Assembly: GCA_963695555.1 (NCBI GenBank)
Contig: CAVOGR010000001.1
Span: 224,001 to 288,000, forward strand
Source: an uncultured Gemmatimonadales bacterium
Lineage (GTDB): Bacteria; Gemmatimonadota; Gemmatimonadetes; Gemmatimonadales; GWC2-71-9
Length of the DNA stretch: 64,000 nt
Direction: 5' to 3'
This document shows positions 2,780 through 64,000 of the stretch, piece after piece (the first letter of the stretch is position 1; every line of letters begins with the position of its first letter). A program made the translations under genes and the position numbers. The notes below the pieces were generated by a model. The model worked only from the letters and a program-made list of their open reading frames with translations. It did no database searches and had not been told where the DNA came from.

Positions 2780-2850
2780 CCCCGACTCCCATGCAGGCTG
2801 TGGGTAACGTGATGCGGGCACTGGGTGGTGCTCCGCTGGTGCTCAGGTGG

Positions 2851-4212
2851 TTAGGTCCCCGGCGAGATGCCGAGGCGCCTCATGCGACGATAGAGATTAG
2901 CCCGGTCCGTGTCGAGCGCGCGTGCCGCTTCGGACACGTTGCCCGACGCGTGATCGAGGGCCGACTGGATGAGCGATCGCTCGAAGTCCGCCAGCGCGTC
3001 GTGCATCGACGCGCGCGGCCTCGAGATTGACGGGGTTGGAAGAGCTGTCTTCGTGGCGGGTTGGAGGACCCGGCGGATGTCCGGCTCGTCGATCTCTGGC
3101 CCAGCCAGGATAGTGGCGCGCTCGACGACGTTGGCGAGTTCCCGGACGTTGCCGGGCCACACATAGTTGGCCAGGCGGTTGAGGGCGCCGTTGGTGAAGG
3201 TCGGCGGTGTGCGCGGGCGGATGCGCCGGGCCAAGTGAGCGACCAGGGCCGGCAGATCTTCGAGCCGCTCCCGGAGCGGGGGGATGGGGATCAGGAACAC
3301 CGCCAGCCGGAAGAAGAGATCTTCGCGGAAAGACTTCGACTCAACCGCGAGTTCCAGCCGGTGGTTGGTTGCGGCAATGATCCGGACGTCAACCGTGGTG
3401 CTGGTCTCCGATCCGATGCGGTCGAGCTGGCCGGTTTCCAGGGTACGCAACACCTTCGCTTGGGCCTCGAGGCCGAGATCGCCCACCTCGTCGAGAAGCA
3501 GCGTGCCCCGATCCGCCAGCTCGAACCGCCCCAAGCGGCGATCGACCGCGCCGGTGAAGGCGCCTCGCTCGTGTCCGAACAGCTCCGATTCGATGAGGTC
3601 ACGCGGGATTGCCGCACAGTTGACCGGCACGAAGGGGTGATCATGCCGGAGACTCTGCCGGTGGATGGCGGCCGCGACCAGTTCCTTGCCGGTGCCGGAC
3701 TCGCCGGTGATCAGCACGCGCGCCTCGGTTGGTGCCACCTGCGCGATCAGCTCCCGAACGCCGCGCATGGCGGGGCTATCGCCCACCAGGTCCGCCGCCG
3801 GAGACAACGCCCGGCGCAGGGCGCGATTCTCAACCCGGGTGCGGTGGAGCTGGAGGGCTGCGCGCAGGGTCGTCAACACGGAGTCCGGGCTGAGCGGCTT
3901 CTCCAGGAATTGGAATGCGCCGAGCTGGGTTGCCCGAACAGCGTCCTGAAGGCCCGCCTTTCCGCTCATCATGATGACCGGGACATCGCTCGCGTTGGCC
4001 TGAAGCTCGGCGAGCACCGCGAGCCCGTCGGGGCCGGGTGGTGGCATGAGGAGGTCGAGCAACACGGCATCGGGCAGGTGCTCTTGCACTGCCTGAAGCG
4101 CTGCGTGCCCGTTGGCCGCCTGATCGACCACGAAGCCCTCGGCCCGGAGCAGGGCGCCGAGCATCCGGAGGATGTTGGCCTCATCATCGACGAGCAGTAC
4201 GCGTGGGGCCAT
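2851..4212 (-). CDS. Sigma54-dependent response regulator (NtrC/NtrX family; REC-AAA+-HTH)
   Basis: VDDE receiver domain, GESGTGKE Walker A, intact GAFTGA, WPGNVREL, C-terminal Fis-type HTH. Confidence 0.95.
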   Translation of the reverse strand: MAPRVLLVDDEANILRMLGALLRAEGFVVDQAANGHAALQAVQEHLPDAVLLDLLMPPPGPDGLAVLAELQANASDVPVIMMSGKAGLQDAVRATQLGAFQFLEKPLSPDSVLTTLRAALQLHRTRVENRALRRALSPAADLVGDSPAMRGVRELIAQVAPTEARVLITGESGTGKELVAAAIHRQSLRHDHPFVPVNCAAIPRDLIESELFGHERGAFTGAVDRRLGRFELADRGTLLLDEVGDLGLEAQAKVLRTLETGQLDRIGSETSTTVDVRIIAATNHRLELAVESKSFREDLFFRLAVFLIPIPPLRERLEDLPALVAHLARRIRPRTPPTFTNGALNRLANYVWPGNVRELANVVERATILAGPEIDEPDIRRVLQPATKTALPTPSISRPRASMHDALADFERSLIQSALDHASGNVSEAARALDTDRANLYRRMRRLGISPGT

Positions 4213-4221
4213 GGCGTGGTG

Positions 4222-5439
4222 TTAGGGGGTGTCCCCTGAGTCTGGTGTCATGCCATCGACCGGGAGTGTCACGATGGCGGTGGTCCCGCCACCGTCGGAC
4301 GGGCGGAGTTCGAGCGAGCCCTGATGGTGTTCGATTGTTTGTTTCGCGAGAGCGAGGCCGAGTCCCGTGCCCGAGTGTTTCCGGGTGAAGTAGGGCTCGA
4401 AGACGCGGGCCTGGTCCTCGGGCCGAATGCCGGGGCCGTGGTCGCGGATTTGGATCTGCACCTGGGCCCGCCCGGCTTCAGCCAAGTGCACTTCGATGGA
4501 CCCGGCTCCCTCCATGGCTTCGGCGGCGTTGGTGATCAGGTTGCCGAATGCGCGCCGAAGCGGGTCGTACTGACCGTGGATCGTGGGCAGGGTCGGGGAG
4601 ACCTGGAGCGTGTGGCTCACTCGAGGCGACAGCGTGGTGCGTGCCAGCTCGGTCAGCAATTCGGCCAGGTCGATTTCGGCCCGGGGGCCCTGGGGCAGGC
4701 GGCCGAACTCGCTGAATTCCTGGGCCATGTGCTCCAGTCGCGCCGACTCGGTCTCGAGGACGTCGAGGGTTTCCGTTGGCACCGTACCCTGAGTGGTGCG
4801 GAGTTGGGCGACCGCCAGTCGGATTGGAGTGAGCGGGTTCTTCATCTCGTGCGCCACCCGCCGCGCTACCTCCTGGAAGGCGCGGAGCCGCTCCGCCTCG
4901 AGTTCCTTGGCGCGTCCCGCCTCGAGCCCGGCTGCCATCTCCTGGAGCCCGGCCCGGAGTGCGGCAAACTCCGGAGCGCCCTTTTGCGGCGGTCCATCGG
5001 GGAGCGGTTCGTGACGGCGGATGTGCTCGGTCCAGCCAATGAGTTCGTCGATGGGGCGGCTCAGTTGCCGGGCGAGGTGTCCCGACAGCCGGACGGACGC
5101 ATAGACCAGGAGCGCTCCGGCGGAGAGGAGGGCGAGGGCGAAGCCCGCGGCGTAGTAGCGGCTGAAGGCGGCGGCTTGCCGTGCTTGGCCCAATGCCGCG
5201 TTCAGCTCCTCGGTGTGGGCCGCGAGCGCCTTACGGCCGGCCTGATCCAATCGCGTGGTGTCGATGGTACCGACCAGTGCGCGCCCCGAGGTGCCCAGCC
5301 GGCTGATGGTCGACTCGGCGCTGGCCACGGGATTGCTCTGCCGGACGGTCATGGCCCAACCCACGACCAGGACCGCGGTGGGCAGGGCGCCGAGGGCGAT
5401 CAGGATGAGCAGGATGCGCTTTCGGAACGGCAGGGCCAT
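4222..5439 (-). CDS. Sensor histidine kinase (NtrY-like; 2 TM, HAMP, HisKA, HATPase)
   Basis: VARRVAHEMKNPLTPI H-box, NLITNA N-box, DHGPGI, GTGLGL. Confidence 0.93.
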   Translation of the reverse strand: MALPFRKRILLILIALGALPTAVLVVGWAMTVRQSNPVASAESTISRLGTSGRALVGTIDTTRLDQAGRKALAAHTEELNAALGQARQAAAFSRYYAAGFALALLSAGALLVYASVRLSGHLARQLSRPIDELIGWTEHIRRHEPLPDGPPQKGAPEFAALRAGLQEMAAGLEAGRAKELEAERLRAFQEVARRVAHEMKNPLTPIRLAVAQLRTTQGTVPTETLDVLETESARLEHMAQEFSEFGRLPQGPRAEIDLAELLTELARTTLSPRVSHTLQVSPTLPTIHGQYDPLRRAFGNLITNAAEAMEGAGSIEVHLAEAGRAQVQIQIRDHGPGIRPEDQARVFEPYFTRKHSGTGLGLALAKQTIEHHQGSLELRPSDGGGTTAIVTLPVDGMTPDSGDTP

Positions 5440-5515
5440 GGGTGGGAAGATAGCGCACGGTCGCGGAGCGTAGGAATCGCCCGAAGCCAACGCCTCATAT
5501 CGAAGTGGCGCCCGC

Positions 5516-6754: not shown

Positions 6755-6801
6755 CCCAACACTCCACTAAGGCCGTGGTGGAGAGTAGCTTACCACCTCG
6801 C

Positions 6802-6817
6802 TGGCACCAATAGTGCA
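6802..6817 (+). promoter_or_regulatory. Putative sigma54 -24/-12 promoter
   Basis: TGGCACCAATAGTGCA (GG-N10-GC), 130 bp upstream of the epimerase operon. Confidence 0.6.
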
Positions 6818-6946
6818 TATTGAGAACGGTTGCCCTGGAGTGCCGCTGCCCAGTGTGGTCAGCCGGGTACGCCTCACGCACTGCTTCCTCGCCTCACCCA
6901 ACCTCGACGGCTGTCGGCGCGGGGTGAAGGCTCGCTCGGAGGTTGA

Positions 6947-7930: not shown

Positions 7931-7993
7931 TGATCCCATGCTCGTCCTATTACACCGTTTGATCTCGGGTTTCGCAGATCGTCCGGATTCGGT

Positions 7994-9114
7994 GTGAGCA
8001 AGATCCGGGTCGTGTTCTGCCTCGACAACATGCGGATTGGGGGTACCGAGCTCAATGCCGTTCGCACGGCGGAGCGGCTCGACAGAGCGCGGTTCGACCT
8101 TCGGGTCGCGGCGCTCCAGAAGGACGGGCCGTTGCTCGCGAGGTACGAGAGCGCCGGGATACCGGTGACACATTTTCCGATTCCGAGCTTATACGGTCCG
8201 AAAACGCTCTATCAGGGGGCGAGGTTGGCCCGATGGCTTCGGTCGGAAGAGATCCAGATCTTTCACAGTCACGATGTCTACTGCAACATCTTCGGCGGTC
8301 CGTGGGCCAGGCTGTCGGGGGTGGCCGTTATCGAGAGCCGCCGCTGGTGGGATTCACTCCCGCGCCCGGGCCTGAGATTCGCCAACCGGATTGCGTACCG
8401 GTTTGCCGACTGCGTCGTAGCCAACAGTCCGTCGGTGGCCCGGCTGGTCGAACAGGGGGATGGCGTTCCGCCCAGTCGAGTCCAGGTGATCCCGAATTTC
8501 GTTGAAGAGAGTGCGTTCGAGCCGCTTGGGGAAGCCGAGCGTTCGAGGCTTCTTGGGAAATTCGGCATCCCCGCGGATGGGATTATTGTTGGAGTGATTG
8601 CCAGGCTCGCCCCGGTCAAGGACCATGCGACGCTGCTCCAGGCGGCCGCACTGCTACGCGAGCGGTGGCCGGACGTGTGGTACCTGCTGGTGGGCGACGG
8701 TGCGAGCCGGGGAGATCTCATGGCGAAGGCGAGGGACCTGGGACTCGGGATAGGGTGGTCTTTGCCGGACAGCAGCCACATGAACCCAACTTGCATCAAC
8801 TGTTCGACGTGTCGGTGCTCTGCTCGCGGAACGAAGCCTTTCCCAACACCGTCATCGAGGCCATGGCGGCCGGTACCCCCGTCGTCGCGACCGCGGTAGG
8901 CGGAGTGCCTGACGCCATCGAGGATGGTGTGACGGGGCGGCTGGTCCGTGTGTCGGATCCGGGCCACCTTGCTACAGTATTGGAGGAATTGCTGCTAAGC
9001 CCCGATGTGCGGGAAGCCTTGGGGGCGGCGGGTCGGGCGCGTGCGAGGGAGCGTTACATGCCAAACCGGGCGTTGTCCGAGCTCGAGACGCTGTACCAAA
9101 GGCTCGTCGCATAA
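7994..9114 (+). CDS. GT4 glycosyltransferase (one frameshift at ~8750, probable missing G)
   Basis: GGTE, IARLAPVKDH, then EAFPNTVIEAMAAG in the next frame; shift lies in a GGG run. Confidence 0.85.
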
Positions 9115-15688: not shown

Positions 15689-17340
15689 TTGCAATTCGGC
15701 TCACTCGCCGTGAGACTTCATGCGGATCATGCCTCTGCCGAGATTCACCATCCACAGACTGTGACCGCTCTGGCGCCCGCAGGCATCGCTCTGCCGATGC
15801 AATCAGTGTCCATGCCGCCAGAACTACCGCGGGTGTTGCTGAGCACCGACTACATACCGGCGACGGGGGCGACGCTGACGGTGCCGGCGGGCGGGGACTT
15901 CCAGGCGGCGCTCAACCAGGCCCAGCCAGGGGACGAGATCGTGCTGGCGGCGGGGGCGACCTACGCCGGGAATTTTGTGCTGCCGACCAAACAGGGGACG
16001 GGGTGGATCGTCATCCGGTCGTCCGAGTTGAGCCAGCTGCCGGCCCCTGGGCGGCGGGTCACGCCGAGTGAAGCGGTCCGGATGCCGAAACTCGCAGACG
16101 GATAACTGCAAGACCGGCCCTTACGGTGCCGGAACGGGCCCACCATTACCGCGTGGTGGGCGTCGAGATCACGAGCGCGCCAAGCACCACGCTGACCTAC
16201 AACATCGTGTACGTCGGGGGGGGCCAGGAGGCGCCGACGGACATGCCCCACGATATCATTTTCGATCGGGTGTACGTGCACGGTCATCCAAGCCTCGACA
16301 CCCAGCGGTGCTTCGCGGTGAACGGCGGGGCCACGGCGATCGTGGATTCCTACGTGAGTGAGTGCCATATCGTGGGGTTCGACAGCCAGGCCATCGGGGG
16401 CTGGCGGGGCACGGGCCCCTACAAGGTGGTGAACAACTATCTGGAGGGGGCGGGGGAGAACCTGATGTTCGGCGGGGCGGGATTCTCGCCGGCGTGGGAC
16501 GTGGCGGCGGATGTGGAGATCCGAGGGAATTACTTCTTCAAGCCGCTGTCGTGGAACCGGAACCATCCGACCTACGCAGGGCGGCGCTGGGCGGTCAAGA
16601 ACCTGTTCGAGATCAAGGACGGCCAGCGCTGGCTGGTAGAGGGGAACATCTTCGAGAACAACTGGGTGGATGGGCAGAACGGGTTCGCCATTCTGTACCA
16701 GGCGGTCGACGGGGTGAACGCGAAGATCACGGACATCACCTTTCGGTACAACATCGTGCGGTACAGCCCGGGCGGCATCAACTGCTGTGGCCGGCATGAC
16801 AATACCGGGACCCGGGGGTTGCCGCGGGAGCCGCTGCAGCGGATCGCCTTCGAGCACAACCTGTTCTACGATATCGGGGTCGATGCCGGGGTGCTGGGGA
16901 GCAACGGCCGGGCGGTGCAGCTTCTCGGCGACCACCGGGACACTTCGCTCAGACACAACACTTTCTTTGGGTCACGAGTCGCCATGGTGTTGACGGGAGG
17001 AGGAGCGGAGCGGACGGTTATAACCGACAACATCTTCGAGCGTGGGCGGTACGGCTTCTTGGGCGACAAAAGCTCGGAAGGCCAAGTTGCTCTCCATCGC
17101 TATATCACTAATTTTGTGTTTGTAGGGAATGTGATTTGGGGAAATTCGTCGGTGAGAGATCGATATCCCGCGGGGAACTACTTTCCGAGCAGCTTTAATG
17201 ACGTCGGGTTCCTCGGGCCTGCTGATTTCGAACTTCGTGCCACGAGCCAGTACGCCAAGGCAGCGTCCGATGGCACTGCACCTGGGCCTGATTTTGCTCC
17301 CCTGAAGCAGGCGACGGCGCGCTCCCGGCTAGGGAGATGA
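15689..17340 (+). CDS. Beta-helix protein copy B; frameshifted at ~16095-16113, start uncertain (possible pseudogene)
   Basis: ORFs 15689-16105 and 16126-17340 together match copy A; net +2 nt relative to copy A; no clear lipobox. Confidence 0.7.
15858..16967 (+). repeat. Direct repeat of the beta-helix core (copy B)
   Basis: Near-identical to 13992-15099. Confidence 0.9.
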
Positions 17341-18423
17341 CCCCAGCTCAGAGTCGCTGCTTACGAGCGCACGAACGGCTGCCCGATGCAACGCCGGTCG
17401 CAGCGTAGGTTCTACTTCATCGTCCCGCAGTCGATAATCTAACAGCGTAGTGTCTACGAAATACCGCCCTAGCGGTGTGTTGGACTTCAGCCACGTGCGA
17501 GAAGCGAACCTGGCACGATACAGCACACGCGCTGTTCTCTCGACGATATTAACCGAGCGTTCTCTTGGGGAGGTTGCCAGCTCAAAACCCATTTCTGAAA
17601 GCTGATGTCCAATCAAGGATTCGATGAGCGTCAGCTCCCTCTCAGAGTAGGCCTTTCTCCAGCGATCTACCGGCTGAAAGTGACCCCCTTGCAGTTCAGC
17701 GTTGAAGGAAGTATTTGGCTTGCTCACCGATCCAATACCGGCAGATAAGATGCGTGCATAATCCATTGGGTGGTCTATGAAGTGGCCTATTGTCGTAAGG
17801 GTTTCTTTCGGATTGGTTGCTAGGTCTCCGAACTGCACTTCCATATAGCGCGGTCCGAGCATGGCTGCATGTGCTCTCCCTTTTTCTGTCATCCACTCCC
17901 AGTATGACGCAGCCGCCACGAGGTCACGACTTTGCCCCACAGGCAGTGGACGGATGGAACGCTGCTTAGCGAGCGAGGCTGCGACATCGCGGCCATCTCG
18001 CACGATGTGGATGAAGAGAGCGTCAGGAAAGTGTGTTTGGATCTCTGGTATGTATAGAATGCTCTCAGGCGTACACTCGGCCCAGCGCCAAGCACCCTGA
18101 TCTATTGCGATGCCCTCCATCAAGAGACGCAGAAAGTCACCCGACGTGCGGCAATGTTCGCGGATTGTGTTTGAGAAGCTGGTTTCGTCGAGCCCCGAAC
18201 GGAGGAAGTACTCGCTCTTCAACCACCGACGGAGGAATGCTTCACGGTCCTTCCTCCGCTTGAATCCGCCACATCGAGGCCCTAATGTATTGAAGACATG
18301 AGACTCGAAGCGATAAATGGCGAAGCCGCCCGCCGAAAGAAGCAAATGGTACAGCCACGTTGTACCAGAGCGGGGGCTTCCTATGATGAATACAGGAGAT
18401 CTATTCATCGGCGACTCTGACAC
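17329..18423 (-). CDS. PAPS-dependent sulfotransferase (Sulfotransfer_3-like)
   Basis: VFIIGSPRSGTTWL 5'-PSB loop; IHIVRDGRDVAAS 3'-PB motif. Confidence 0.9.
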   Translation of the reverse strand: MSESPMNRSPVFIIGSPRSGTTWLYHLLLSAGGFAIYRFESHVFNTLGPRCGGFKRRKDREAFLRRWLKSEYFLRSGLDETSFSNTIREHCRTSGDFLRLLMEGIAIDQGAWRWAECTPESILYIPEIQTHFPDALFIHIVRDGRDVAASLAKQRSIRPLPVGQSRDLVAAASYWEWMTEKGRAHAAMLGPRYMEVQFGDLATNPKETLTTIGHFIDHPMDYARILSAGIGSVSKPNTSFNAELQGGHFQPVDRWRKAYSERELTLIESLIGHQLSEMGFELATSPRERSVNIVERTARVLYRARFASRTWLKSNTPLGRYFVDTTLLDYRLRDDEVEPTLRPALHRAAVRALVSSDSELGSSP

Positions 18424-54433: not shown

Positions 54434-54529
54434 CGAACTTCCTTGTTTCTCGACCTGAAGAGCCGTAAGCTTGGCTCCCAGATGGCCTCAAGTCAATCCC
54501 AGTTTTCACGGCAACGTCATGGAGATTCG

Positions 54530-55429
54530 GTGAACGAGCTAGCACGCGAGAGGTCCACTTGGCGTGACGTGATTCTGCTGGCACGACCGCAGCAGTGGGT
54601 CAAGAACGGCTTCGTTCTGGCGCCGCTCTTGTTCTCGGGGCGAGTCCGGGAGCCGGAGGCAATCGGACTCGCGAGCGGAGCCCTCCTCGCCTTCTGTCTC
54701 GCGGCCAGTTCGGTGTACATGGTCAACGACGTAGTCGACCGCGTCACGGATCAGGCCCACCCCGCCAAACGACATCGGCCCGTAGCTGCGGGCCGTATTT
54801 CGACTCACACTGCACTCGGTATCGGGCTGGCACTGGCGCTCGCCGCGATCTTCCTGGCCTGGGCCGTGCACCCCACCCTGGTCGTGGTGGTCGCGTCGTA
54901 CCTCGGCCTGAACGTGCTGTACACCTTTCGACTCAAACAGGTGGTCATCCTCGACGTCTTTGCGATTGCCGTGTTCTTCCTGCTGCGGCTCCTGGCCGGC
55001 TCTGTTGCCATCGACGTCAGGCCGTCGATCTGGCTCATCCTGTGTGGCGGGCTGCTCGCCCTCTTTCTTGGCTTCGCCAAACGTCGCCACGAGTTGTTGC
55101 TGCTGGGCGATGAGTCGACCGATCACCGGAGCGTTCTCTCGGAATACAGCACCGCATTCCTGGATCAGATGTCCACCGTGCTCCTGGCGGTGACCGTTGT
55201 CACCTACATCATGTACACCGTGTCCACGGAAAAGGTGGGGGAAATTGGCTCCTACGCGCTGGTGTACAGCACCGGCTTCGTCCTCTATGGCGTATTCCGA
55301 TATCTGTATCTCGTCCATCAACGGGATGGCGGCAGTCCCACCGAAACCTTGCTCACCGATCGTGCGTTGCTTGCGGATGTGGTCCTCTGGGTGCTCTACT
55401 GCGGCTGGGTGATCTATCGGCCGGTCTGA
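54530..55429 (+). CDS. UbiA-family polyprenyl-phosphate phosphoribosyltransferase (DPPR synthase-like)
   Basis: RPQQWVKN, YMVNDVVD..D..HPAKRHRPVAAG, LFLGFAKRRHE, YGVFRY, SPTE..LTD; GGAG RBS before a GTG start. Confidence 0.88.
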   Translation: MNELARERSTWRDVILLARPQQWVKNGFVLAPLLFSGRVREPEAIGLASGALLAFCLAASSVYMVNDVVDRVTDQAHPAKRHRPVAAGRISTHTALGIGLALALAAIFLAWAVHPTLVVVVASYLGLNVLYTFRLKQVVILDVFAIAVFFLLRLLAGSVAIDVRPSIWLILCGGLLALFLGFAKRRHELLLLGDESTDHRSVLSEYSTAFLDQMSTVLLAVTVVTYIMYTVSTEKVGEIGSYALVYSTGFVLYGVFRYLYLVHQRDGGSPTETLLTDRALLADVVLWVLYCGWVIYRPV

Positions 55430-55430
55430 C

Positions 55431-56825
55431 ACGCTCGTCGGGCGGAATTTTTTCGCCCTGGGGCTCGGCGACGCGCTGGCGCGCGGTATTGCCTTCGGCG
55501 CAACAATCTACCTGGCGCGCGTTCTCGGCGTCGGGGGATACGGGGTCGTTGCTTTAGCGGCTGCTGTCACGCTCTATCTGGCACAACTTGCCGACTTCGG
55601 GGTCGAGACCCTCGGTATCCGTGAAGTCGCCGAAGACCCCAACGCCATCGATGAGCGCGCCCCACCCATTCTCCTAGCTCGAATCCTGATCGCCGCGGGG
55701 TTGATCGTGATCACCCTGCCGGTCGCGCTGCTCGTATTGCCGCAACCGGAAGGCGCCGTGATCGCGGCCTACAGCCTGACGCTCATTCCGATCGCCGCCA
55801 GCACCCGATGGGTCCATCTTGGCCTGGAATCGGCCCGCCCGGTCGGCATAGCGCGCACCATCGGCGAGTCGGTGATGATCGTTCTGGTGCTGATCCTGGT
55901 GCAACGAACTGGCGACATCTGGTCGGTGCCGTTGGCGCAGTTTGCGGGAGAGTCGGCGGCGGCCCTCCTGCTCCTGGGCTTACTCGCGCGCCGAGGCTTT
56001 CGACTTCGAGCCGTCTGGGCCCCCGAACGGGTGCGGCCTGTGTTCCGCCGTGCCTGGCCGCTCGTAGCCCATGGGTTGCTCGGCCTTCTCATCTTCAATT
56101 CGGATCTCGTGTTCCTGCGGCTGTTTCGCGACCTCGCGAGCGTCGGGTACTACGCCGCGGGTTATACCCTCATCAGCTTTCTGTTGAACCTGGGTGTGGC
56201 CTATGGCATGGCCTTGCTGCCGACCTTGACTCGGCTCGGGGCCAGGACGACCGAGGAGCGGAATCTCTACCACACGGCCCAGGCCCAGGTATTCACGACC
56301 GGCCTTCCCGTCGCCTTGGGGGGGGCGCTTCTTGCCGTCGAACTCATGCAGCAGGTGTTCGGCCTGAGCTACTTGCCGGCAGGTGCTGCACTGAAGGTGT
56401 TGATTTGGTCGGTTCCGGTCTCGCTCTTCCGCAATGTCGCCATTTCCGCGCTGGTCGCGCGCGGCCGCCAGGACCAGGTGCTCCGGACCACCACCGGCTC
56501 CACGGTGCTGAACGTGGTGCTGAATGTTCTCCTCATCCCGCGGTACGGGATCATGGGCGCTGCGTGGGCGACTGTGGTCACGGAGCTCCTCCGCACGATC
56601 CTGGCACTCCGATTCGCGGCAGAGGAGGGCCTGGTGGTCCTGCCACTTCGCCGGCTGGGGCGGGCCACGGTGTCGGGGCTAGCCATGGTTGCGCTCCTGA
56701 TTGTGTTCCGCCCAGCGAACCTCTGGGCGGCGATTGCCTTTGGTGGGAGCGCCTACCTCGGCGTCCTGACACTGGTGGGCGGGGTGCAGTTCCGTCGCGG
56801 CCAGCTGCCAGCCCTCCGGGTCTAG
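55431..56825 (+). CDS. wzx: Wzx/RfbX-type flippase; no canonical start codon found
   Basis: Frame open from 55413 reading ..VGRNFFALGLGDALARGIAFGATIYLARVLG...ADFG; VGYYAAGY, LIPRYGIMGAAWAT. Confidence 0.85.
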   Translation, partial: TLVGRNFFALGLGDALARGIAFGATIYLARVLGVGGYGVVALAAAVTLYLAQLADFGVETLGIREVAEDPNAIDERAPPILLARILIAAGLIVITLPVALLVLPQPEGAVIAAYSLTLIPIAASTRWVHLGLESARPVGIARTIGESVMIVLVLILVQRTGDIWSVPLAQFAGESAAALLLLGLLARRGFRLRAVWAPERVRPVFRRAWPLVAHGLLGLLIFNSDLVFLRLFRDLASVGYYAAGYTLISFLLNLGVAYGMALLPTLTRLGARTTEERNLYHTAQAQVFTTGLPVALGGALLAVELMQQVFGLSYLPAGAALKVLIWSVPVSLFRNVAISALVARGRQDQVLRTTTGSTVLNVVLNVLLIPRYGIMGAAWATVVTELLRTILALRFAAEEGLVVLPLRRLGRATVSGLAMVALLIVFRPANLWAAIAFGGSAYLGVLTLVGGVQFRRGQLPALRV

Positions 56826-56932
56826 GGTACCCCTGGCGCGCCCTTGTGGCGTCAATGCTACATAACGCTTGGCGACTGGTTGCCCTGAGGTCGATTGAGC
56901 ATCGGCGGTGTGCGGTGAATGAGGCCTACACG

Positions 56933-56948
56933 TGGTATGGCATTTGCA
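56933..56948 (+). promoter_or_regulatory. Putative sigma54 promoter (best match in the window)
   Basis: TGGTATGGCATTTGCA matches TGGYAYR-N4-TTGCW; upstream of the small ORF-sulfatase-cys operon. Confidence 0.7.
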
Positions 56949-57078
56949 AATCGTTTGTTGACCTGTGACATTTGACGGCCTGATCGAGGGCTCGAAAGCT
57001 GTTGTCACGCTGCCCCGCTCGGAGTGTTCCGTTAATGAGCCATCACCCGCATCCTTTCGCTGACGCCTCGAGGTAACC

Positions 57079-57243
57079 GTGGGATTGAATCTGTTGAACC
57101 TTGGACTCTTCTATGTCGGGCCTGAGACCCTTCTCCCCCTCACGTCGGTCCTGGGGGCTATTGGCGGTCTCCTCATGATCTTCTGGCGTCAGGTCACGGG
57201 AGCCGTCCGTCGGGTAGTGGGTCTCTTCAGCCGGAAAACCTGA
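57079..57243 (+). CDS. 54-aa single-TM small protein (YVGPE motif), missed by the ORF track
   Basis: GAGGT RBS, GTG start; MGLNLLNLGLFYVGPETLLPLTSVLGAIGGLLMIFWRQVTGAVRRVVGLFSRKT*. Confidence 0.75.
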   Translation: MGLNLLNLGLFYVGPETLLPLTSVLGAIGGLLMIFWRQVTGAVRRVVGLFSRKT

Positions 57244-57395
57244 CTGCTCGTAGTGCGAATCTGGCCCTACGGTGACTCTCTTCCTGCCTGTTTGATTTCA
57301 CCTCACCAACCCAAGCGGTGTGGTGAGCGTGGGTTCGTCGTCTCGGGTCTGTTCGGGATACCGAGAGAGCGACCGATCCAACGCGGGACCGAGCT

Positions 57396-59222
57396 GTGAC
57401 AGGCGCTGTCGGGGCACGTGAGCCTCGTCAAAGCGGTGTGCGTCCGTCACACCTCTTGGCTCTTGGCGCATGGCTGGGTTTGGCCTACGGCTTTCTGGAG
57501 GCACTCGAGTTCTTCGTTCTGGGCCTGGTGCCCGGTGCCCTTGCCTGGCGCAACGGGAACTCCGCGCCCGTCTTCCTCGTCGCGCCAGCATTCTACATGG
57601 CGCTTTATGCGTTCCTTGGCCTCCTGACAGCACTGCTTTCACGAGCGAGGCCCCAGTGGCGGTGGGACATCATCCTGGCCGCCGCGCTCGTCACGCTGTC
57701 GGGATACCTGGGCGCGAGCCTGCAGGGCCAGCTGTTCTCGCCTATGGTGTCCGTCATCTTGGGTGTTGGCATGGGCGCGGTGACCATTCGGACACTGCGC
57801 CGCCACGCGGCTCTGCTTCCCCGGGTGATTCGGTCCCTTCCATGGCTCACGGCAGGGGTCTTGGGCATCGGCGTCCTGGCGGTGGGCAGTGGTGTGGCAC
57901 GGGAACGATTGGCCCTCAGCTCACTCCCAGATCGCGCACCCGACGGGCCCAATGTGCTGGTCCTGGTCCTGGATACCCAGCGGGCCGATCATTTGGGTTT
58001 CCAGGGCTACCGCCGGCCCACGTCGCCCGCCATGGATTCCTTTGCGGCGCAGGGGACCATTTTCACGAATGCAATCAGCAACTCATCGTGGACGCTGCCA
58101 TCGCACGCTTCGCTGTTTACCGGTCGTCCGGTCAGCGAGCATCGGGCGGGTCAATTGCGCCGTCCGTTTCTCGGGCGCGCCTTTCCGACTGTGGCGGAAG
58201 CATTCACGAGGGCAGGTTATGTCACAGCGGGATTCACGGCGAATACGTTTTGGGCGGGACGCCAGACCCGGCTCAATCGCGGATTTGTCCACTGGGAGGA
58301 TTTCTATCGCAAGCCGGGTGACGCGTTGGTTCGCACCGTCCTCGGCCGGAAGATCGCCTACGAGTTCCTTCCCAAGTTCGGCCAGATCGACATTCCTGGC
58401 CGAATGCGCGCCGAGGACATCAATAATCGGCTCTTCCGATGGCTCGATCGAACCAAGCGCCGTCCGTTCTTCGCATTCCTGAACTATATGGACGTACACG
58501 GCCCGTACCTGCCACCAGCCTCCTACGCGGGACGATTTGGCGGGCCGCGCACCCACGTCGGAAAGACCATTGAACTTGGGGCCGTCACAGACGAAACAGC
58601 CCTGCCACCGCCCGAACTCCTACGGGATTGGGTCAATCAGTACGATGAGTCGATCCTGGCGCTCGATGCCGGTGTCGGCGCCTTGCTTCATGGCCTCGAG
58701 AGACGCGGCATCCTGGATAACACGGTAATCGTGCTGACCTCGGATCACGGCGAGAGTTTTGGCGAGCATGGCATGATTTATCATGGGAACGGGCTTCACC
58801 GGGATCAGGTGCATGTGCCGCTCGTTATCCGGTACCGGCCGGCCGTGGCAGCCGGTGTCCGTGAATCGCGCGCCGTGGGAATTCATCAGATCCCGGCGAC
58901 GGTCATGGAACTCGCCGGACTGCCGACGACAGCCTTTCCCGGACCCTCGCTCTTCACCGAGAGCGACGCTCCTGTCTTGGCGGAAGTCGGCTTCCGGCCG
59001 CAAGTACCAACGTCGTGGCCGACGGCACATGGGTGGGTCAAGTCACTGACGACCCGGCGCTGGCATTTTATCCTTCTCGAGAGTGGCCAGGTGGAACTCT
59101 ATGATCTCGCCGTGGACCCGGAGGAGACGACCGACTTGGCTGCTCGCCCCGAGCTTGCGGAGACGGTCGAGGAACTACGGACCCTGGTGGAACGCCGTGC
59201 GCCGGCGGATTTTCGGCCATGA
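57396..59222 (+). CDS. Membrane-anchored alkaline-phosphatase-superfamily (sulfatase-like) hydrolase/transferase
   Basis: ~5 N-terminal TM helices; [55 protein letters not shown]. Confidence 0.88.
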
Positions 59223-61099
59223 AGAAAGACGGAGCGACGGGAAGAATGAAGGCTGAGCCTCGGGAAGAGACGCCATCGGTTGCCACACGCGGGGCGACCG
59301 ACACGACTCCGCTGGAGCGAATGCCCATAGTCATTGCCGGGCATGTCGATCACGGGAAGAGCACCATCATTGGTCGCCTGCTCGCGGATACGGGCTCGCT
59401 GCCCGAGGGCAAGCTCGACCAGGTGCGAGCCTCGTGCGAGCGGAATGCGAGGCCCTTCGAGTACGCATTTCTCCTGGATGCGCTCAAGGACGAACAGGCC
59501 CAAGGCATCACCATCGACTCGGCACGCGTTTTCTTTAAGTCGGACCGGCGCTACTACATCATCATCGACGCCCCAGGCCACATCGAATTCCTCAAGAACA
59601 TGGTGACTGGTGCGGCACGGGCCGAGGCCGGATTGCTCGTGATCGATGCCCAGGAGGGCGTGAAGGAAAATTCACGCCGCCATGGTTACATGATGTCGAT
59701 GCTCGGCATCCCGCAGATTGCCGTGCTGGTAAACAAGATGGACTTGGTGAAGTACGACCGCCGGGTGTTTGATGAGATCGTCGCCGAGTACGGCGCATTC
59801 CTGCAGCAGATCGACCTGCGGCCGACCTATTTCATTCCGGTCAGTGGCCGGGAGGGAGAGAATGTCGCCCACGCGGGGGCTCACATGCCTTGGTACGAGG
59901 GCTCCACGGTGCTGCAGGCGCTCGACGAATTCGCAGCCCCTCAGCCTCCGGTAGACGGGCCATTCCGGATGGCGGTCCAGGGCGTCTACAAGTTCACCCA
60001 GCACGGTGATGACCGGCGGATCGTGGCCGGGACCGTCCAGAGCGGCACCGTGCATGTCGGGGACGAGGTGGTGTTCTATCCCTCCGGCAAGAAGAGCCAC
60101 GTCCGGTCGATCGAGGCGTTTCACCGGCCCGAGCAGCACGCGGCGAGGGCCGGACAGGCAACCGGCTTCACCCTCTCGGAGCAGATCTTCGTTTCCCGCG
60201 GCGAAATCGTGGCGCGGGCGTCCGAGGCACACCCGAAGGTGACCAGCCTCATCCGGGCAAATCTGTTTTGGTTGGGGAAGGATTCGCTGATCAAGAACAG
60301 GGACTACACTCTGAAGCTGGGCACGACTCGCGTGCCGATGCGCCTGGAACAGGTCCATCGGGTAATCGACGCCTCGGATTTGAGTGCCATGGCAGACACG
60401 GACCGGATCAACCGCCACGACGTCGCGGATTGTACCCTCAAACTGAAGCGGGACATCGCGTTCGATCTCGCAGAAGATATCGCAGCCACCAGTCGGTTTG
60501 TCGTGGTGGACGGCTACGAAATCCGCGGCGGCGGCATCATCCGGGAAGCGCTCGAGGATCAGCAGGCTTGGGTGCGCGAGAAGGTGCTCCTGAGGAACTA
60601 CAAGTGGGAGCCCAGCATCATCGCGCCGGAGCATCGTGCGGAAAAATATAATCAACGCTCGACACTCATGCTCATCACCGGCGCCCAGGAAGCCGACCGG
60701 AAGTCGGTCGCCAAGGGCCTCGAGTCACGGCTCTTCGATGATGGCCGGGTGGTGTATTTCCTGGGCATCGGCAACGTGCTCTACGGCGTGGACGCCGATA
60801 TCGAGCGGACGGTCGAGAACCGGCAGGAGCATCTCCGGCGGCTGGGCGAGATTGCCAACCTGATGCTCGATGCGGGCGTCATCCTGGTTGTCACTGCCGC
60901 CGAGCTCACGCACCAGGAGCTGCAGCTGATCCGGACGTCCGTCGGCTCGGACCGGATCGAGACGGTGTGGGTCGGGGAGAACGTGACGACCGACCTTGCC
61001 TACGATATTCTTCTGTCCGAGCATGAAACCGTGGACGAGCAGGTGTTCCGTCTCAAGAGCCACCTGCAGGAAGCGGGCATCATTTACCGGCCATGGTGA
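59219..61099 (+). CDS. cysN: Sulfate adenylyltransferase subunit 1 with a degenerate C-terminal APS-kinase-like domain
   Basis: [27 protein letters not shown]; the C-domain has [10 protein letters not shown] in place of the P-loop. Confidence 0.9.
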
Positions 61100-61884
61100 A
61101 ACCATTGGATGCGGGAGCGATGATCGAGATCTCTCACGAGAGCCTCCAGCGGCTCGACGCAATTGCCCGGGAGGCAGGCGCCGCGACGTTGCGGCACTAC
61201 CATTCCGATACCGTGGTGGAGGAGAAGGCGGACCGTTCCCCGGTGACGGCGGCGGACCGGGAGGCACATCGAATCATACAGGCTGCGCTCATCGCGTGGG
61301 ACCCGGCGGTCCCGGTGGTGTCCGAAGAGGGAACAATTCCGGACTACAGCGTGCGCCAAGGCTGGGAACGGTTCTGGCTGGTGGATCCGCTCGACGGCAC
61401 CAAGGAGTTCTTGAAGGGGAATGGCGAGTTCACCGTGAATATCGCCCTGATCGAGCAAGGGGTTCCCGTTCTGGGCGTCGTGTTCGCACCGGCACGGGGG
61501 CTCATGTACACGGCGGGTCGGGGGCTCGGGGCGTGGAAGCGTGACGGCCAGGCAGTCGCCAGCCGAATCCAATCTCAACCACCTGAGCCTGGCACACCGC
61601 TCACGGTGGTGGAAAGCCGCTCGCATCCGTCCGACGCCCTCGAGGCCTATCTCAAGACTATCGCGGTCGGCCGCCGCGTCCAGGCGGGCAGTTCACTCAA
61701 GTTCTGTTGGGTCGCCGAGGGCAAGGCCCATGTGTACCCGAGGCTTGGGCCGACCATGGAGTGGGATGTCGCCGCTGGGGATTGTGTCTTCCGGAATTCG
61801 GCGCCCTCAGGCGAGCGTACTTCGCCGCTACGATACAACATGCCCGATCTCCGTAACCCCTCGTTCGTGATAGGGATCGACTGA
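61093..61884 (+). CDS. cysQ: 3'(2'),5'-bisphosphate nucleotidase
   Basis: [37 protein letters not shown]. Confidence 0.93.
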
Positions 61885-61914
61885 CGACATGCGCACACCA
61901 ATCCGGCGCCGCCG

Positions 61915-62643
61915 ATGACGGGACCGTACCGTGAATCGCATGCGCGTGCGATCGCCAAGACCATCTCGTGGCGGATTCTCGCCACGTTCACCACCACGCT
62001 CCTGGTCTGGCTGTTCACGCACGAGATCGGCCTGGCTGCCACCGTTGGAGGGTTGGAAGCGATCTCGAAGCTGGTGCTGTACTACGCCCACGAGCGTGGC
62101 TGGGATCACATCCGCTTTGGGCGGCGCGAGATCGAGCCGGCCGTCCTCTGGTTCACCGGCCTCTCGGGCTCGGGCAAGAGCACCATCGCGGAGGAGGTAT
62201 TTGCCCAGCTCAAGCGCCGCGGGTACAAGACGGAGCGCCTGGACGGCGACACGATCCGAAGCATCTTCCCGCAAACGGGGTTCACCCGCGACGAGCGTGA
62301 TGCGCACATCCGCCGGGTGGGCTATCTCGCGAGCAAGTTGGAACAGAACGGCGTGTTCGTCGTGGCATCGTTGGTATCACCGTATCAGGATTCTCGAGAC
62401 TTCGTCCGCAGCCTCTGCCGGAACTTTATCGAGGTGTATATCTCCACGCCGCTCGACGAATGCGAGCGACGTGATGTCAAGGGATTGTATGCTCGCGCTC
62501 GCCGGGGCGAGATCAAGAACTTCACCGGCATCGACGATCCGTATGAATCGCCGTCCGATGCCGAGGTCGTGATCGACACGACCAACGTCAGCGTGGACGT
62601 CGCAGCTGCGCAGGTGTTGTCACAAATACAGATACGCGGTTAG
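61915..62643 (+). CDS. cysC: Adenylyl-sulfate kinase with an N-terminal DUF2061-like membrane domain
   Basis: KTISWR...YYAHERGW N-domain; [32 protein letters not shown]. Confidence 0.92.
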
Positions 62644-62651
62644 AGGGCTCC

Positions 62652-63533
62652 ATGGATCATTTGGATCAACTGGAAAACACGAGTGTTCAGATTCTTCGCG
62701 AGGCGTACGCGAATTTCAAACACCTGGGCATGCTGTGGTCGATCGGCAAGGACAGCACGGTGCTCTGTGGCTAAGCCGGAAGGCCTTCTTCGGCCACGTG
62801 CCGTTTCCGCTCATTCACATCGATACGTCATTCAAGATCCCGGAAATGATCGAGTACCGGGACCGGCTCGTCGCGGAGTGGCACCTCAACTTGATCTATG
62901 GGCAGAACCAGGTCGCGCTCGCCGAGAAGCGTACCTTTCCCGATGGCGCCGTCGACCGGCTCACCTGCTGCGGTCTGCTCAAGACCGAAGCGCTCAAGAA
63001 CACCTTGAGCGGGGCAGTGGCCCCGGTATCGCTTCAATCACGTGAAGAAGACCTACGAACTGGACAGCAATACCGAGCCGTTCACGGGGGTTATCGTTGG
63101 AGCCCGGGCGGACGAAGAGGGCAGCCGGTCGAAGGAACGATATTTCTCTGCGCGGACGGACCAGAACGAGTGGGACGTTGCCGACCAGCCGCCGGAATTC
63201 TGGAATCAGTACAAGACCGAGTTTGCCCCGGGGACCCACGTGCGGATCCACCCCTTGTTGGATTGGACGGAGCTCAATATCTGGGAGTACATCGAGCGGG
63301 AGCAAATCCCAACGGTGTCGTTGTACTACGATCAGGGCGAAGGCAAGCGCTACCGCTCGCTCGGATGCTGGCCGTGCACCAATCCGGTCGATTCCTCAGC
63401 GTCGGATGTTGAACAGATCATCGAGGAGCTCCGCACGGGCAAGTTCGCCAACATCGCCGAGCGATCCGGCCGGGCGCAGGACAAGGACGACGGCGGCGGG
63501 CTGGAAACGCTCCGGCGTGACGGATATATGTAG
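62652..63533 (+). CDS. cysD: Sulfate adenylyltransferase subunit 2 (two frameshifts, ~62765 and ~63015)
   Basis: [39 protein letters not shown], terminal GYM*. Confidence 0.9.
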
Positions 63534-63740
63534 TCCCAGCCGATCACTTCACCGCGAGCAATGCGACACGAGCGCGTGGAGGATCGGATCCAGGCCCATG
63601 GAGTCCGATGGCGCTCTCGCATGCCGGGAACCATGACCCATCGTGACCCCGTGCCGGCCTCTCTTGGCCCAGGTCACATCGTGTGCTGACGGCCGCTCCC
63701 GCGGGCCGGATCCAGAGCACATTCCTGCCCCAGCATCCGG

Positions 63741-64000
63741 TCATGGAGCAGGAGGGAAGGAGTCAGGGCGGGATTCGCCTCCGGGCAGCAATTGGTAAAT
63801 GTCGATGTCCCCAAACCTTTCCACCTGCCGGTATTTCTGCTGTAACAGGGCGGCAAAAGCGGGAAAGTCCGTGACCGAGTACTCGGCACCCAGGATCATC
63901 TCGCTGAGCTGCCCCACCACGATGATTGCCGGGGGCGAAGCTTTCAGATCGTCCATGAATTCCGTCCGATAGGCCTCACGAATCTTCGTTCCCTCGCCCA
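63741..64000 (-). CDS. C-terminal end of a protein truncated by the window edge, possibly a GT-C membrane glycosyltransferase
   Basis: Frame open to the window end: ...REAYRTEFMDDLKASPPAIIVV...FPAFAALLQQKYRQVERFGDIDIY. Confidence 0.55.
   Translation of the reverse strand, partial: GEGTKIREAYRTEFMDDLKASPPAIIVVGQLSEMILGAEYSVTDFPAFAALLQQKYRQVERFGDIDIYQLLPGGESRPDSFPPAP

Follow-up and report, generated by a model that had tools for sequence, protein, structure and literature searches.

Organization of the operon

We analysed a 64,000-nucleotide stretch of an uncultured Gemmatimonadales genome (assembly GCA_963695555.1, contig CAVOGR010000001.1, positions 224,001 to 288,000; the whole stretch is called the window below, and positions count from its first letter). 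Our subject is a group of genes at 56933..63533 on the plus strand, which joins a gene for a 54-residue membrane microprotein with a gene for a sulfatase-fold membrane enzyme and with the genes for synthesis of 3'-phosphoadenosine 5'-phosphosulfate (PAPS). A sequence-only reading, made by a model from the letters and their open reading frames (ORFs), had placed a peptide ORF, a sulfatase-fold protein, cysN, cysQ, cysC, cysD and a sigma54 motif here, and all of them were found where it had put them.

A putative sigma54-type promoter element, TGGTATG-GCAT-TTGCA, with its -24 GG and -12 GC, can be read directly in the sequence at 56933..56948 (+). It is followed by the gene of the single-pass microprotein (57079..57243, +), assigned to a new family by its ORF, conservation and purifying selection, and by the gene of a 608-residue membrane enzyme of the S1-sulfatase fold (57396..59222, +; PF00884, E 6e-46; AlphaFold2). 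Four cys genes come next: cysN for the large subunit of sulfate adenylyltransferase (59219..61099, +; TIGR02034, 336.7 bits against a cut-off of 336.1), cysQ for the 3'(2'),5'-bisphosphate nucleotidase that removes 3'-phosphoadenosine 5'-phosphate (61093..61884, +; TIGR01331, 270.8 bits against 228.8), cysC for an adenosine 5'-phosphosulfate (APS) kinase with an N-terminal DUF2061 membrane domain (61915..62643, +; TIGR00455, 194.4 against 138.7) and cysD for the small subunit of sulfate adenylyltransferase (62652..63533, +; NF003587, 204.2 against 195 for the last piece of a gene that is split here). A spacer of 253 nt carrying the sigma54-like site separates the end of a flippase gene (56825) from the microprotein ORF, and the microprotein gene is followed by a gap of 152 nt. 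Further downstream, the start of cysN overlaps the stop of the sulfatase-like gene by 4 nt, and since all junctions from the sulfatase-like gene to cysD are overlaps or gaps of at most 30 nt, we regard these genes as one operon, of which the microprotein gene, behind the sigma54-like site, is taken as the lead.

The microprotein family

The microprotein ORF opens with a GTG codon five bases 3' of a GAGG sequence, and translation could start at an internal TTG instead. Its product reads MGLNLLNLGLF-YVGPE-TLLPLTSVLGAIGGLLMIFW-RQVTGAVRRVVGLFSRKT. Scanned against Pfam and NCBIfam, the window protein matched no family, and 37 aligned members compared with Pfam at E-values up to 10 returned noise, with unrelated families at E 0.05 as the best matches. 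The nearest clusters of a protein atlas are unnamed (“hypothetical protein”) and score 0.86-0.89, under the level that counts.

A single-protein query gave matches in the same genus and in other genera (this tally takes in the unpublished genome G018, on which no specific claim depends). With a profile of nine sequences, the microprotein was detected in 56 of 401 genomes of the phylum at E <= 0.01, and strong matches (E < 1e-9) were located at 48 places in 45 of these genomes. Searching 1.84 billion cluster representatives with a 37-sequence profile yielded 1304 matches at E <= 0.001 and 532 at E <= 1e-10, which bears out the conservation of the peptide on which the sequence-only reading had made its proposal depend. 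The proteins are uniformly small, 47-113 residues in 150 of 150 matches listed. In addition, a locus search among contigs of one genome per species retrieved 78 microprotein loci, nearly all from metagenome-assembled genomes (MAGs) of Gemmatimonadota; the loci from other groups belong to candidate division KSB1 (one), Anaerolineae (three) and Rhodothermales (one). The clusters that were looked up bear only the source name “hypothetical protein” (in part from Gemmatimonadaceae MAGs), barring one plant record. This record, of 510 residues and named as a Golgi complex subunit, sits in the 90%-identity cluster of the close homolog P0004 and is probably contamination or a chimeric gene model.

Of 1045 usable pairs compared over a 36-codon core, 1023 had a ratio of non-synonymous to synonymous substitution rates (dN/dS) below 1, and the ratio ranged from 0.08 to 0.30 between the window gene and most copies of its own family. 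The copy from the same genus differs in 5% of its bases, every difference being synonymous. These substitution patterns indicate that the ORF is a genuine coding gene under purifying selection. Moreover, an RNA-library contig of 1563 nt (metatranscriptome run X1), 98.6% identical to the window, bridges 56500-57848 and carries zero changes within the microprotein ORF and differences in both flanking spacers. As RNA-library contigs may derive from DNA, this contig demonstrates presence and sequence constraint, not transcription.

At some loci the microprotein gene is doubled, in tandem with about 270 nt between the copies (L126, L127, L131) or about 3.9 kb apart (L064, 3894-4049 and 7836-7985). 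P0012 and P0041 are among the few proteins with a second, partial copy of the motif in one chain.

Motif and predicted topology

The family is marked by an N-terminal Y-x-G-P-[D/E] motif. Its Tyr is found without exception, both at the genomic places (48 of 48) and in the representatives among the matches listed (148 of 148); the Tyr that the earlier reading had singled out as a possible group carrier is thus conserved throughout. Further invariant residues in a 37-row alignment are a Pro, a second Pro five residues on, a Ser and a Gly. In most lineages the Tyr occupies position 2 or 3; there it is preceded by an ATG, GTG or CTG codon, or else a Met stands two residues ahead, and therefore the mature microprotein begins with M-Y or M-L-Y in most lineages; the window's own family has 8-13 additional hydrophobic residues ahead of the Tyr. 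In the window protein, Y-V-G-P-E is followed by an uncharged helix, a W and a basic tail.

This layout is general. In 195 sequences, the segment of eight residues that opens with the Tyr has a mean net charge of -1.0, the next 17 are essentially uncharged, and the tail carries a mean net charge of +4.8 (at least +3 in 170 of the 195). The positive-inside rule is established knowledge for membrane topology, and from the rule and this distribution of charges the Tyr end is predicted to be periplasmic and the tail cytoplasmic. The Tyr would accordingly share its side of the membrane with the predicted catalytic domain of the sulfatase-like enzyme. No fused forms were seen, as none of 122 long homologs carries the motif or matches the microprotein profile; a search for longer forms gave one 210-residue match on a 782-bp contig, which is probably an over-extended frame. 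The absence of fusions weakly suggests that the microprotein stands alone. A conserved microprotein with an invariant Tyr, outward-facing in the predicted topology, is a firm outcome of these comparisons.

A sulfatase-fold enzyme with Thr at the formylglycine position

The AlphaFold2 model of the sulfatase-like protein has a mean predicted local distance difference test score (pLDDT) of 91.2 and a predicted template modelling score of 0.90. Five N-terminal transmembrane (TM) helices are predicted (residues 17-43, 59-84, 90-108, 116-136 and 148-175), the catalytic domain lies after them, and the positive loops indicate a cytoplasmic N-terminus and an extracytoplasmic catalytic domain. The top structures in Foldseek were 4uph, 7ptj and 9fo1 (E 3e-21 to 1e-19), and ranks 1-50 among the matches listed were all sulfatases or phosphonate monoester hydrolases at probability 1.00. 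In sequence as in fold, the solved proteins that the catalytic domain resembles most are S1 sulfatases and phosphonate monoester hydrolases, and the likeness extends to the C-terminal subdomain and the Asp/His metal-ligand positions; a match to SGSH_C stayed below threshold (24.0 bits, cut-off 29.3).

The central motif differs from that of S1 sulfatases, in which it reads C/S-x-P-x-R. Aligned by sequence to 5g2v (E 1e-20), the enzyme has T233 in place of the formylglycine residue and H237 in place of the motif Arg, in the context W-T-L-P-S-H (T233-L-P-S-H237). The resulting T-x-P-x-H is invariant in 62 sequences, together with L234 and the further residues D193, D450 and H451 (T233, P235 and H237 being those of the motif), so that the designation as a Thr-type sulfatase in the sequence-only reading was apt. 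Of 122 long proteins, 112 contain W-T-x-P-x-H. With Thr in place of the motif's Cys/Ser and His in place of its Arg, the enzyme cannot form formylglycine. With Ser or Thr where formylglycine would otherwise be made, the covalent sulfo-enzyme should become trapped instead of hydrolysed, which would suit a transferase.

Two further features set the protein apart from S1 sulfatases, namely its 5-TM anchor and its neighbours, which serve PAPS synthesis instead of glycan degradation. The arrangement of five N-terminal TM helices and an extracytoplasmic domain of the alkaline-phosphatase superfamily with Thr at the nucleophile position, as predicted here, is that of LtaS, EptA and OpgB, transferases that use Thr as the nucleophile. 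Unlike EptA and LtaS, however, the enzyme is nearer to true sulfatases in sequence and fold: the best EptA-type structure was 6bne at E 3e-9, the NCBIfam EptA models gave about 35 bits against cut-offs of 560-660, and EptA and MCR models taken together gave 17-48 against 500-1250. The protein thus appears to be a sulfatase fold without formylglycine chemistry, mounted on an EptA/LtaS-like membrane anchor. Its relatives are annotated as “sulfatase” or “arylsulfatase A-like” by their sources, and arylsulfatase labels on Thr-type enzymes are probably wrong or misleading. That the enzyme is of the Thr type, has the sulfatase fold and is membrane-anchored and outward-facing, as predicted, stands firmly.

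P0252 (1005 residues) is a natural fusion in which a Sulfotransfer_1 domain, preceded by a TM helix, is joined through five TM helices to a sulfatase-like domain that reads T-L-P-A-H. A TM-anchored sulfotransferase of the P0252 type also stands alone near the microprotein gene at three loci, directly adjoining the sulfatase-like gene in L085 and L087 and lying within a few kb of it in L164. The fusion and these neighbours appear to tie the enzyme to sulfation. The genome contains five sulfatase-like paralogs in 3.57 Mb, a second of which, 36% identical, lies on the strand opposite to the operon at 291795-293402 of contig C1, about 4 kb past the end of the window; the three others are scattered elsewhere, and a microprotein gene accompanies none of these.

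PAPS supply and use

CysD, CysN, CysC and CysQ each reach their curated family cut-offs, CysD on one fragment, and the cys operon is the only PAPS pathway detected in the genome. The C-terminal domain of CysN is a partial APS-kinase-like domain (PF01583 profile positions 2-107 of 152, 43 bits). CysC consists of PF01583 at residues 75-221 (E 1e-54) and PF09834 (DUF2061) at residues 13-64 (E 4e-17); this two-helix membrane domain on the APS kinase leads to the prediction that PAPS is made at the membrane. In other genomes (L061, L077), a CysC lacking DUF2061 is encoded after the microprotein gene, with overlapping stop and start.

The cysD gene is present as the sequence-only reading had it, but not as an intact frame: it runs in frame 0, shifts to +2 from ~62770 and is in frame 0 again at ~63040, three pieces in all, versus the single 296-residue frame of the same-genus ortholog (G002). 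Indels are suspected because other genes are also split, both in the window and in a same-genus assembly, and because the two shifts compensate each other; split genes fit indel-prone long-read assemblies. Pseudogenisation of cysD was considered, and assembly indels were rated more likely. Split or overlapping genes are also present at 22698-24119 and 28127-30302 (-), with an asparagine-synthase-like gene in two ORFs and a dehydrogenase/oxidoreductase pair, and the same-genus ortholog of the sulfatase-like gene (L043, 7013-8836) matches in four pieces.

The earlier reading had also pointed out that reductase genes of the cysH and cysI type are lacking from the window, and this observation extends to the whole assembly, which is 87% complete: PF01507, for cysH-type reductases, matched only this cysD above cut-off, and PF01077, for sulfite reductase, gave zero matches. 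As genes for sulfate reduction are absent from the assembly, PAPS serves sulfation there and not assimilation, as had been proposed, a conclusion that holds for the assembled genome. What that reading overlooked are the ordinary consumers of PAPS. The genome has four Sulfotransfer_3 genes, one of which, encoding a cytoplasmic PAPS-dependent sulfotransferase, lies in the same polysaccharide locus as the operon (17329..18423, -; PF13469, E 2e-23). Since ordinary cytoplasmic sulfotransferases are present, the use of PAPS requires no new chemistry.

The presence of PAPS genes and sulfotransferases in the same polysaccharide locus is known to mark the synthesis of sulfated polysaccharides, and a Vibrio capsule locus has a second or dedicated cysNDC set beside sulfotransferase genes in its polysaccharide cluster, according to the accessible excerpts of PMC11641403. 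The PAPS operon studied here differs from that locus in carrying the lead microprotein and the Thr-type membrane enzyme; those excerpts of PMC11641403 mention no lead microprotein, and the word “sulfatase” appears nowhere in the paper.

Genomic linkage of the microprotein to modifying enzymes and PAPS genes

The neighbourhood of the microprotein gene was surveyed at the 48 places (45 genomes, 27 genera), about 9 kb to each side, with the window's own proteins and the Sat-CysC and PF01663 proteins of relatives as queries. A homolog of the sulfatase-like enzyme was found within 9 kb at 35 of the 48 places, at 17 of them within 500 bp, and a PF01663 enzyme at 15 (13 within 500 bp); one or the other of these two types of the alkaline-phosphatase superfamily was present at 38 places (29 within 500 bp). 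PAPS genes occurred at 28 of the 48 places, at 17 within 500 bp. The linkage to T-x-P-x-H enzymes and to PAPS genes, which had been put forward as a check on the proposal, is therefore observed, and because the genome has just five sulfatase-like paralogs in 3.57 Mb, the enrichment is far above chance. A second set of 83 places, screened 5 kb to each side and partly overlapping the first, gave 64 places with either enzyme and 37 with PAPS genes. Consistent with this, APS kinase was detected in 43 of the 45 genomes that bear the microprotein versus 217 of 356 other genomes (these tallies take in the unpublished genomes G083 and G121, and no specific claim depends on either).

Several arrangements recur. 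In one, the microprotein gene is followed by one to five tandem sulfatase-like genes. In another, it is followed by genes for a 616-residue PF01663 enzyme, which lacks a signal peptide or TM helix, a 488-residue PF01663 enzyme and a sulfatase-like protein, at times with cysN-Q-C-D thereafter. This module is seen at L066 (3788-8948), L071, L073, L078, L082, L084, L086 and others, and its PF01663-PF01663-sulfatase-like part amounts to three successive proteins of the alkaline-phosphatase superfamily. The order microprotein-PF01663-sulfatase is kept in one KSB1 record and in three Anaerolineae records. A third arrangement consists of a UbiA-like gene, the microprotein gene, cysN and then other cys genes, and in a fourth a CysQ-CysC fusion or CysC follows the microprotein, stop and start overlapping. 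A homolog of the UbiA/DPPR-synthase-like protein lies within 9 kb at 11 of the 48 places, and also in the KSB1 locus L141. The PAPS genes themselves differ between lineages: another family has a Sat-CysC fusion, non-orthologous to CysDN, and in a sister family this fusion is divergently transcribed beside the microprotein-enzyme pair. The link to PAPS thus spans non-orthologous sulfate-activating enzymes, CysDN and Sat-CysC.

Glycosyltransferases of the GT-C fold form another class of neighbours. A GT-C gene stands directly downstream of the microprotein gene at nine places, of the GT87 type at L049 and L051 and of the PMT_2 type at L075, L087, L096, L097, L105, L116 and L122 (L075 and L098 are the same contig). 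At L096, L097, L105, L116 and L122 a GT2 gene follows the GT-C gene and sulfation genes are absent from the locus, and at L096, L105 and L122 an LPG_synthase_TM gene comes after the GT2 gene. The operon of these last three loci (~1400-9100) encodes in order a GMC oxidoreductase, a PMT-like GT-C protein, the microprotein, a PMT_2 GT-C protein, a GT2 enzyme and LPG_synthase_TM; the PMT-like protein upstream of the microprotein gave a faint PMT match in L096 and no family match in L105 and L122.

As to a dedicated pairing of peptide and sulfatase, the association stands at 35 of 48 places, whereas exclusivity does not, in view of the cysN, PF01663 and GT-C contexts and of the microprotein gene accompanying one of the five paralogs in this genome. 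The tight, repeated linkage of microprotein and Thr-type enzyme to PAPS synthesis in polysaccharide loci, behind a conserved sigma54-type site, is firmly established.

Promoter and leader

The sigma54 consensus has GG and GC ten bases apart within TGGCAC-N5-TTGCW. The site in the window, TGGTATGGCATTTGCA at 56933-56948, has GG and GC at the -24/-12 spacing and lies 131 nt upstream of the microprotein ORF. Sigma54-like sites scoring at least 10 of 12 were found within 300 nt upstream of the microprotein gene at 15 of the 48 places, against 0.58 expected from shuffles. Neither a sigma70-like site nor a terminator was seen between the sigma54-like site and the ORF in a scan of 56500-64000 that was otherwise uninformative, and Rfam gave zero matches in the leader (56700-57500). 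The window also encodes a sigma54-dependent response regulator (2851..4212, -; PF00158, PF00072, PF02954) and a histidine kinase (4222..5490, -; PF02518, PF00512). The regulator scored 374.9 bits on TIGR02915, the model of the PEP-CTERM-box regulator, which is below the cut-off of 502.6. The pair at 2851-5490 is a candidate for the control of the sigma54-like site.

A proposed accessory subunit of envelope-modification machinery

Our preferred explanation, to which we give somewhat less than even weight, is that the microprotein is a new accessory membrane subunit of a periplasm-facing envelope-modification machinery tied to PAPS supply. We favour this role because the neighbours of the microprotein have in common outer-face polytopic enzymes and a cytosolic sulfate supply. 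PAPS would be consumed by cytoplasmic sulfotransferases, one of them in the locus, which would place sulfate on the polysaccharide or on a lipid-linked precursor. The microprotein would be embedded in the membrane as an accessory of modifying enzymes that face the periplasm, here the Thr-type sulfatase-like protein and in other lineages a GT-C glycosyltransferase, and docking would be mediated by the conserved N-terminal motif together with the helix. The basic tail may keep cytosolic proteins of the PAPS pathway at the membrane, as BcsF does in the phosphoethanolamine-cellulose system of E. coli for BcsE, a c-di-GMP sensor with a GIL domain, beside the phosphoethanolamine transferase BcsG. 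The Thr-type enzyme would most likely make a covalent Thr intermediate and act outside the cytoplasm on a sulfated or phosphorylated envelope substrate, by hydrolysis or by transfer.

Complex prediction for the microprotein with the full sulfatase-like protein, with alignments as input, had been suggested as a check on their pairing and returned a weak pass. The score was 0.38 (runs 0.31, 0.42 and 0.38) against 0.00 for the best control; the mark is reached by 116 of 157 solved complexes and by two of 215 mismatched pairs, and passes with scores of 0.60 or less number just 18 among the 157 solved complexes and include both mismatches. At least 34% of contacts are shared between the runs, and the pLDDT of the partner is 62 or higher. 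This weakly supports contact between the two proteins, the odds of which it raises slightly, and is silent on the location of the Tyr.

The closest precedent appears to be BcsF. The accessible excerpts of PMC11470070 describe BcsF as a single-pass peptide that is co-encoded with the transferase BcsG but does not contact it; an amphipathic extension is present, and BcsE is recruited through the cytosolic tail. By comparison with that partial account, the likeness lies in a single-pass peptide of ~50-60 residues, encoded in an exopolysaccharide-modifying operon with a periplasm-facing enzyme of the alkaline-phosphatase superfamily, and in a helix that is followed by an amphipathic or basic cytosolic tail, the latter predicted here. 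The analogy is imperfect, since the conserved part of the microprotein is the N-terminal Y-x-G-P-[D/E] and not the tail. None of the 37 members matches the Pfam model of BcsF, a BcsE-like family is absent among the window ORFs scanned, the enzyme has the S1-sulfatase fold with Thr and is not of the BcsG/EptA type, and the link to PAPS has no Bcs counterpart.

A number of observations weigh against an accessory subunit tied to PAPS. The gene immediately downstream of the microprotein is variable (sulfatase-like, PF01663, cysN, cysQ-cysC, cysC or GT-C), which leaves no single obligate partner, and support for contact with any partner comes from one complex prediction with a weak pass. Microprotein genes precede just one of the five sulfatase-like paralogs of the genome. 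At five places, all in one genus, the microprotein heads a cys operon and the sulfatase-like gene is absent within 9 kb, and two of the 48 places (L074, L075) lack every linked gene type within that distance. Two genomes that bear the microprotein, G012 (97% complete) and G224 (95% complete), show no APS kinase. Furthermore, related genomes are not independent, and the tallies of linkage overstate the number of independent associations. Conservation is strongest in the N-terminal motif and the helix and not in the tail, which is a poor fit to a BcsF-like tail recruiter, and an absolutely invariant Tyr at residue 2 or 3 exceeds the obvious needs of docking and leaves room for a chemical role.

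Alternative explanations

The foremost of the alternatives, though an unlikely one, is that the microprotein is a regulatory lead ORF, the translation or membrane insertion of which tunes the downstream genes or the product of which feeds back on the sigma54 two-component system, much as small membrane peptides are known to act on sensor kinases. Its position speaks for such a role, as the microprotein gene is almost always the first one after a promoter-bearing spacer, whatever comes next; four places (L050, L061, L066, L086) show an overlap between its stop and the start of the next gene, a sigma54 site is conserved upstream at 15 of the 48 places, and a sigma54 activator and kinase are encoded in the same locus. 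The protein itself argues otherwise, because the protein sequence is conserved along the entire helix and has residues that are invariant, a pattern unexpected for a simple attenuator. Known arrest peptides are conserved at the C-terminal end, and the conserved part here is N-terminal. The gap to the next gene in the window is 152 nt long, the leader contains no Rfam element, and in L096, L105 and L122 the microprotein is encoded in mid-operon between two GT-C genes.

Next in rank, and doubtful as well, comes the idea closest to the sequence-only reading, namely that the Tyr on the periplasmic side carries a sulfuryl or phosphoryl group, hands it to the Thr of the enzyme and thus to a glycan outside the cytoplasm. 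A relay from PAPS through Tyr and Thr to the polymer, by which envelope glycans would be sulfated outside the cytoplasm, is as improbable in our estimate. The Tyr might be loaded by a membrane-anchored sulfotransferase, fused to the enzyme or encoded beside it, or from a lipid-linked intermediate. Such a shuttle would account for the complete invariance of the Tyr at the places and in the representatives described above, for its predicted position on the same side as the catalytic domain, and for an enzyme that retains the fold and metal ligands of S1 sulfatases and has its formylglycine position taken by Thr. PAPS genes linked at 28 of the 48 places, a form of the enzyme fused to a sulfotransferase and the weak pass in complex prediction (0.38 against 0.00) are also on its side.

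A precedent is available in DltX, the microprotein of the DltB/DltD pathway of D-alanylation, which shuttles D-Ala by way of an invariant Tyr; this Tyr belongs to an F-x-Y-x-x-F “acyl shuttle” motif at the C-terminal, extracellular end (PMC12148441, as far as the accessible excerpts go). Judged by those excerpts, both are membrane microproteins with an invariant Tyr near the extracytoplasmic terminus, encoded with genes for modification of an envelope polymer, the activated donor for which is made in the cytoplasm. Unlike in DltX as excerpted there, the Tyr is N-terminal here and the C-terminus is a basic tail. None of the 37 members matches the Pfam model of DltX even at E up to 10, the MBOAT (DltB) and SGNH (DltD) families are absent among the 55 window ORFs scanned with Pfam, and the cargo of the Tyr would be a sulfuryl instead of an acyl group.

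Against a Tyr shuttle stands the lack of a candidate that could load a periplasmic Tyr from cytoplasmic PAPS, since no MBOAT-like or comparable conduit was present among these 55 ORFs. In addition, the microprotein heads GT-C operons that have no sulfation genes, cytoplasmic PF01663 enzymes follow it at 13 places, the two genomes named above have no detected APS kinase, and ordinary cytoplasmic sulfotransferases exist in the genome. The motif is fused to the enzyme in none of the 122 long homologs, whereas DltX-type pathways that lack the microprotein have the motif on an enzyme, according to the excerpted source. If a Tyr-Thr relay did operate, it would do for sulfate what the DltX shuttle does for D-Ala, and it would be the first route in bacteria by which PAPS feeds sulfotransfer outside the cytoplasm.

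Somewhat less probable again is a helper for lipid-linked donors, in which the microprotein presents or translocates polyprenyl-phosphate-linked or other lipid-linked donors to outer-face enzymes. This would explain GT-C and 5-TM alkaline-phosphatase-superfamily neighbours alike. It agrees with the GT-C genes that are paired with a gene resembling GT2 polyprenyl-phosphate glycosyltransferases, with the UbiA/DPPR-synthase-like genes within 9 kb at 11 of the 48 places, with the Wzx-type flippases adjacent in the window and with the position as first gene, which is also that of GtrA in gtrABC operons. A single helix of ~50 residues, however, is an unlikely translocator, the GT-C operons already have the flippase-like LPG_synthase_TM gene, and we know of no lipid-linked sulfate donor.

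We consider it very unlikely that the microprotein is a stand-alone peptide resembling a sorting signal, in which motif, helix and basic cluster are recognised by a sortase- or exosortase-type enzyme of the locus. Its three-part layout recalls PEP-CTERM or LPXTG signals, two of the 37 members have faint LPXTG-anchor matches (E 0.07), and the sigma54 regulator and O-antigen-ligase-like genes of the locus resemble families of exosortase systems, all below cut-offs; yet the exosortase model PF09721 found nothing in the 87%-complete genome, no PEP-CTERM or LPXTG match reached a meaningful E-value, and the N-terminal motif leaves no cargo. Finally, a chance ORF in a GC-rich spacer, ahead of what would be merely a sulfatase gene with cys genes, can practically be dismissed, for although high-GC DNA yields many spurious ORFs and the protein is named nowhere beyond “hypothetical protein”, it is conserved across families and phyla with invariant residues, a dN/dS well below 1 and 1304 cluster representatives.

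Significance of the module

Searches of open-access literature on small membrane proteins with sulfatase and PAPS, on sulfated polysaccharides of Gemmatimonadota and on membrane sulfatases or sulfotransferases of the Thr type turned up no description of this module. What is new are the family of microproteins, that of the Thr-type membrane sulfatase-like proteins and the repeated coupling of the two, whereas the PAPS genes are ordinary family members; that the module as a whole is categorically new has a minority chance. Small membrane proteins routinely escape annotation, and this one defines a large family of 1304 cluster representatives. Moreover, the analysis flags a broad class of membrane-anchored “sulfatases” that are unable to make formylglycine and are encoded with PAPS synthesis, not with glycan breakdown. 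Should the microprotein and the enzyme together transfer sulfate or another group onto polymers outside the cytoplasm, this would be a new principle of envelope chemistry and a new route to sulfated polysaccharides. The more conservative explanation as an accessory subunit still offers testable targets, namely one Tyr, one Thr and one operon.

The surrounding polysaccharide locus

According to a Pfam scan of its ORFs, the remainder of the window is a large exopolysaccharide locus. Just upstream of the operon lie genes for a UbiA-family prenyltransferase that resembles decaprenyl-phosphate phosphoribosyltransferase (54443..55429, +; NF008977, 262.7 bits against a cut-off of 234) and for a polysaccharide flippase of the Wzx/MOP type (55701..56825, +; PF01943, PF03023, PF13440), the real start of which is probably further upstream. 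The locus encodes many GT2 and GT4 glycosyltransferases, a Wzy-like polymerase or ligase and a second flippase, as well as UDP-glucose dehydrogenase, polysaccharide deacetylases, a heparinase II/III-like protein and an asparagine-synthase-like amidotransferase. Between 17329 and 30302 on the minus strand, genes for the sulfotransferase, a polysaccharide deacetylase, a formyltransferase-like protein, UDP-glucose dehydrogenase and the heparinase II/III-like protein make up a set reminiscent of glycosaminoglycan-like sulfated polymers.

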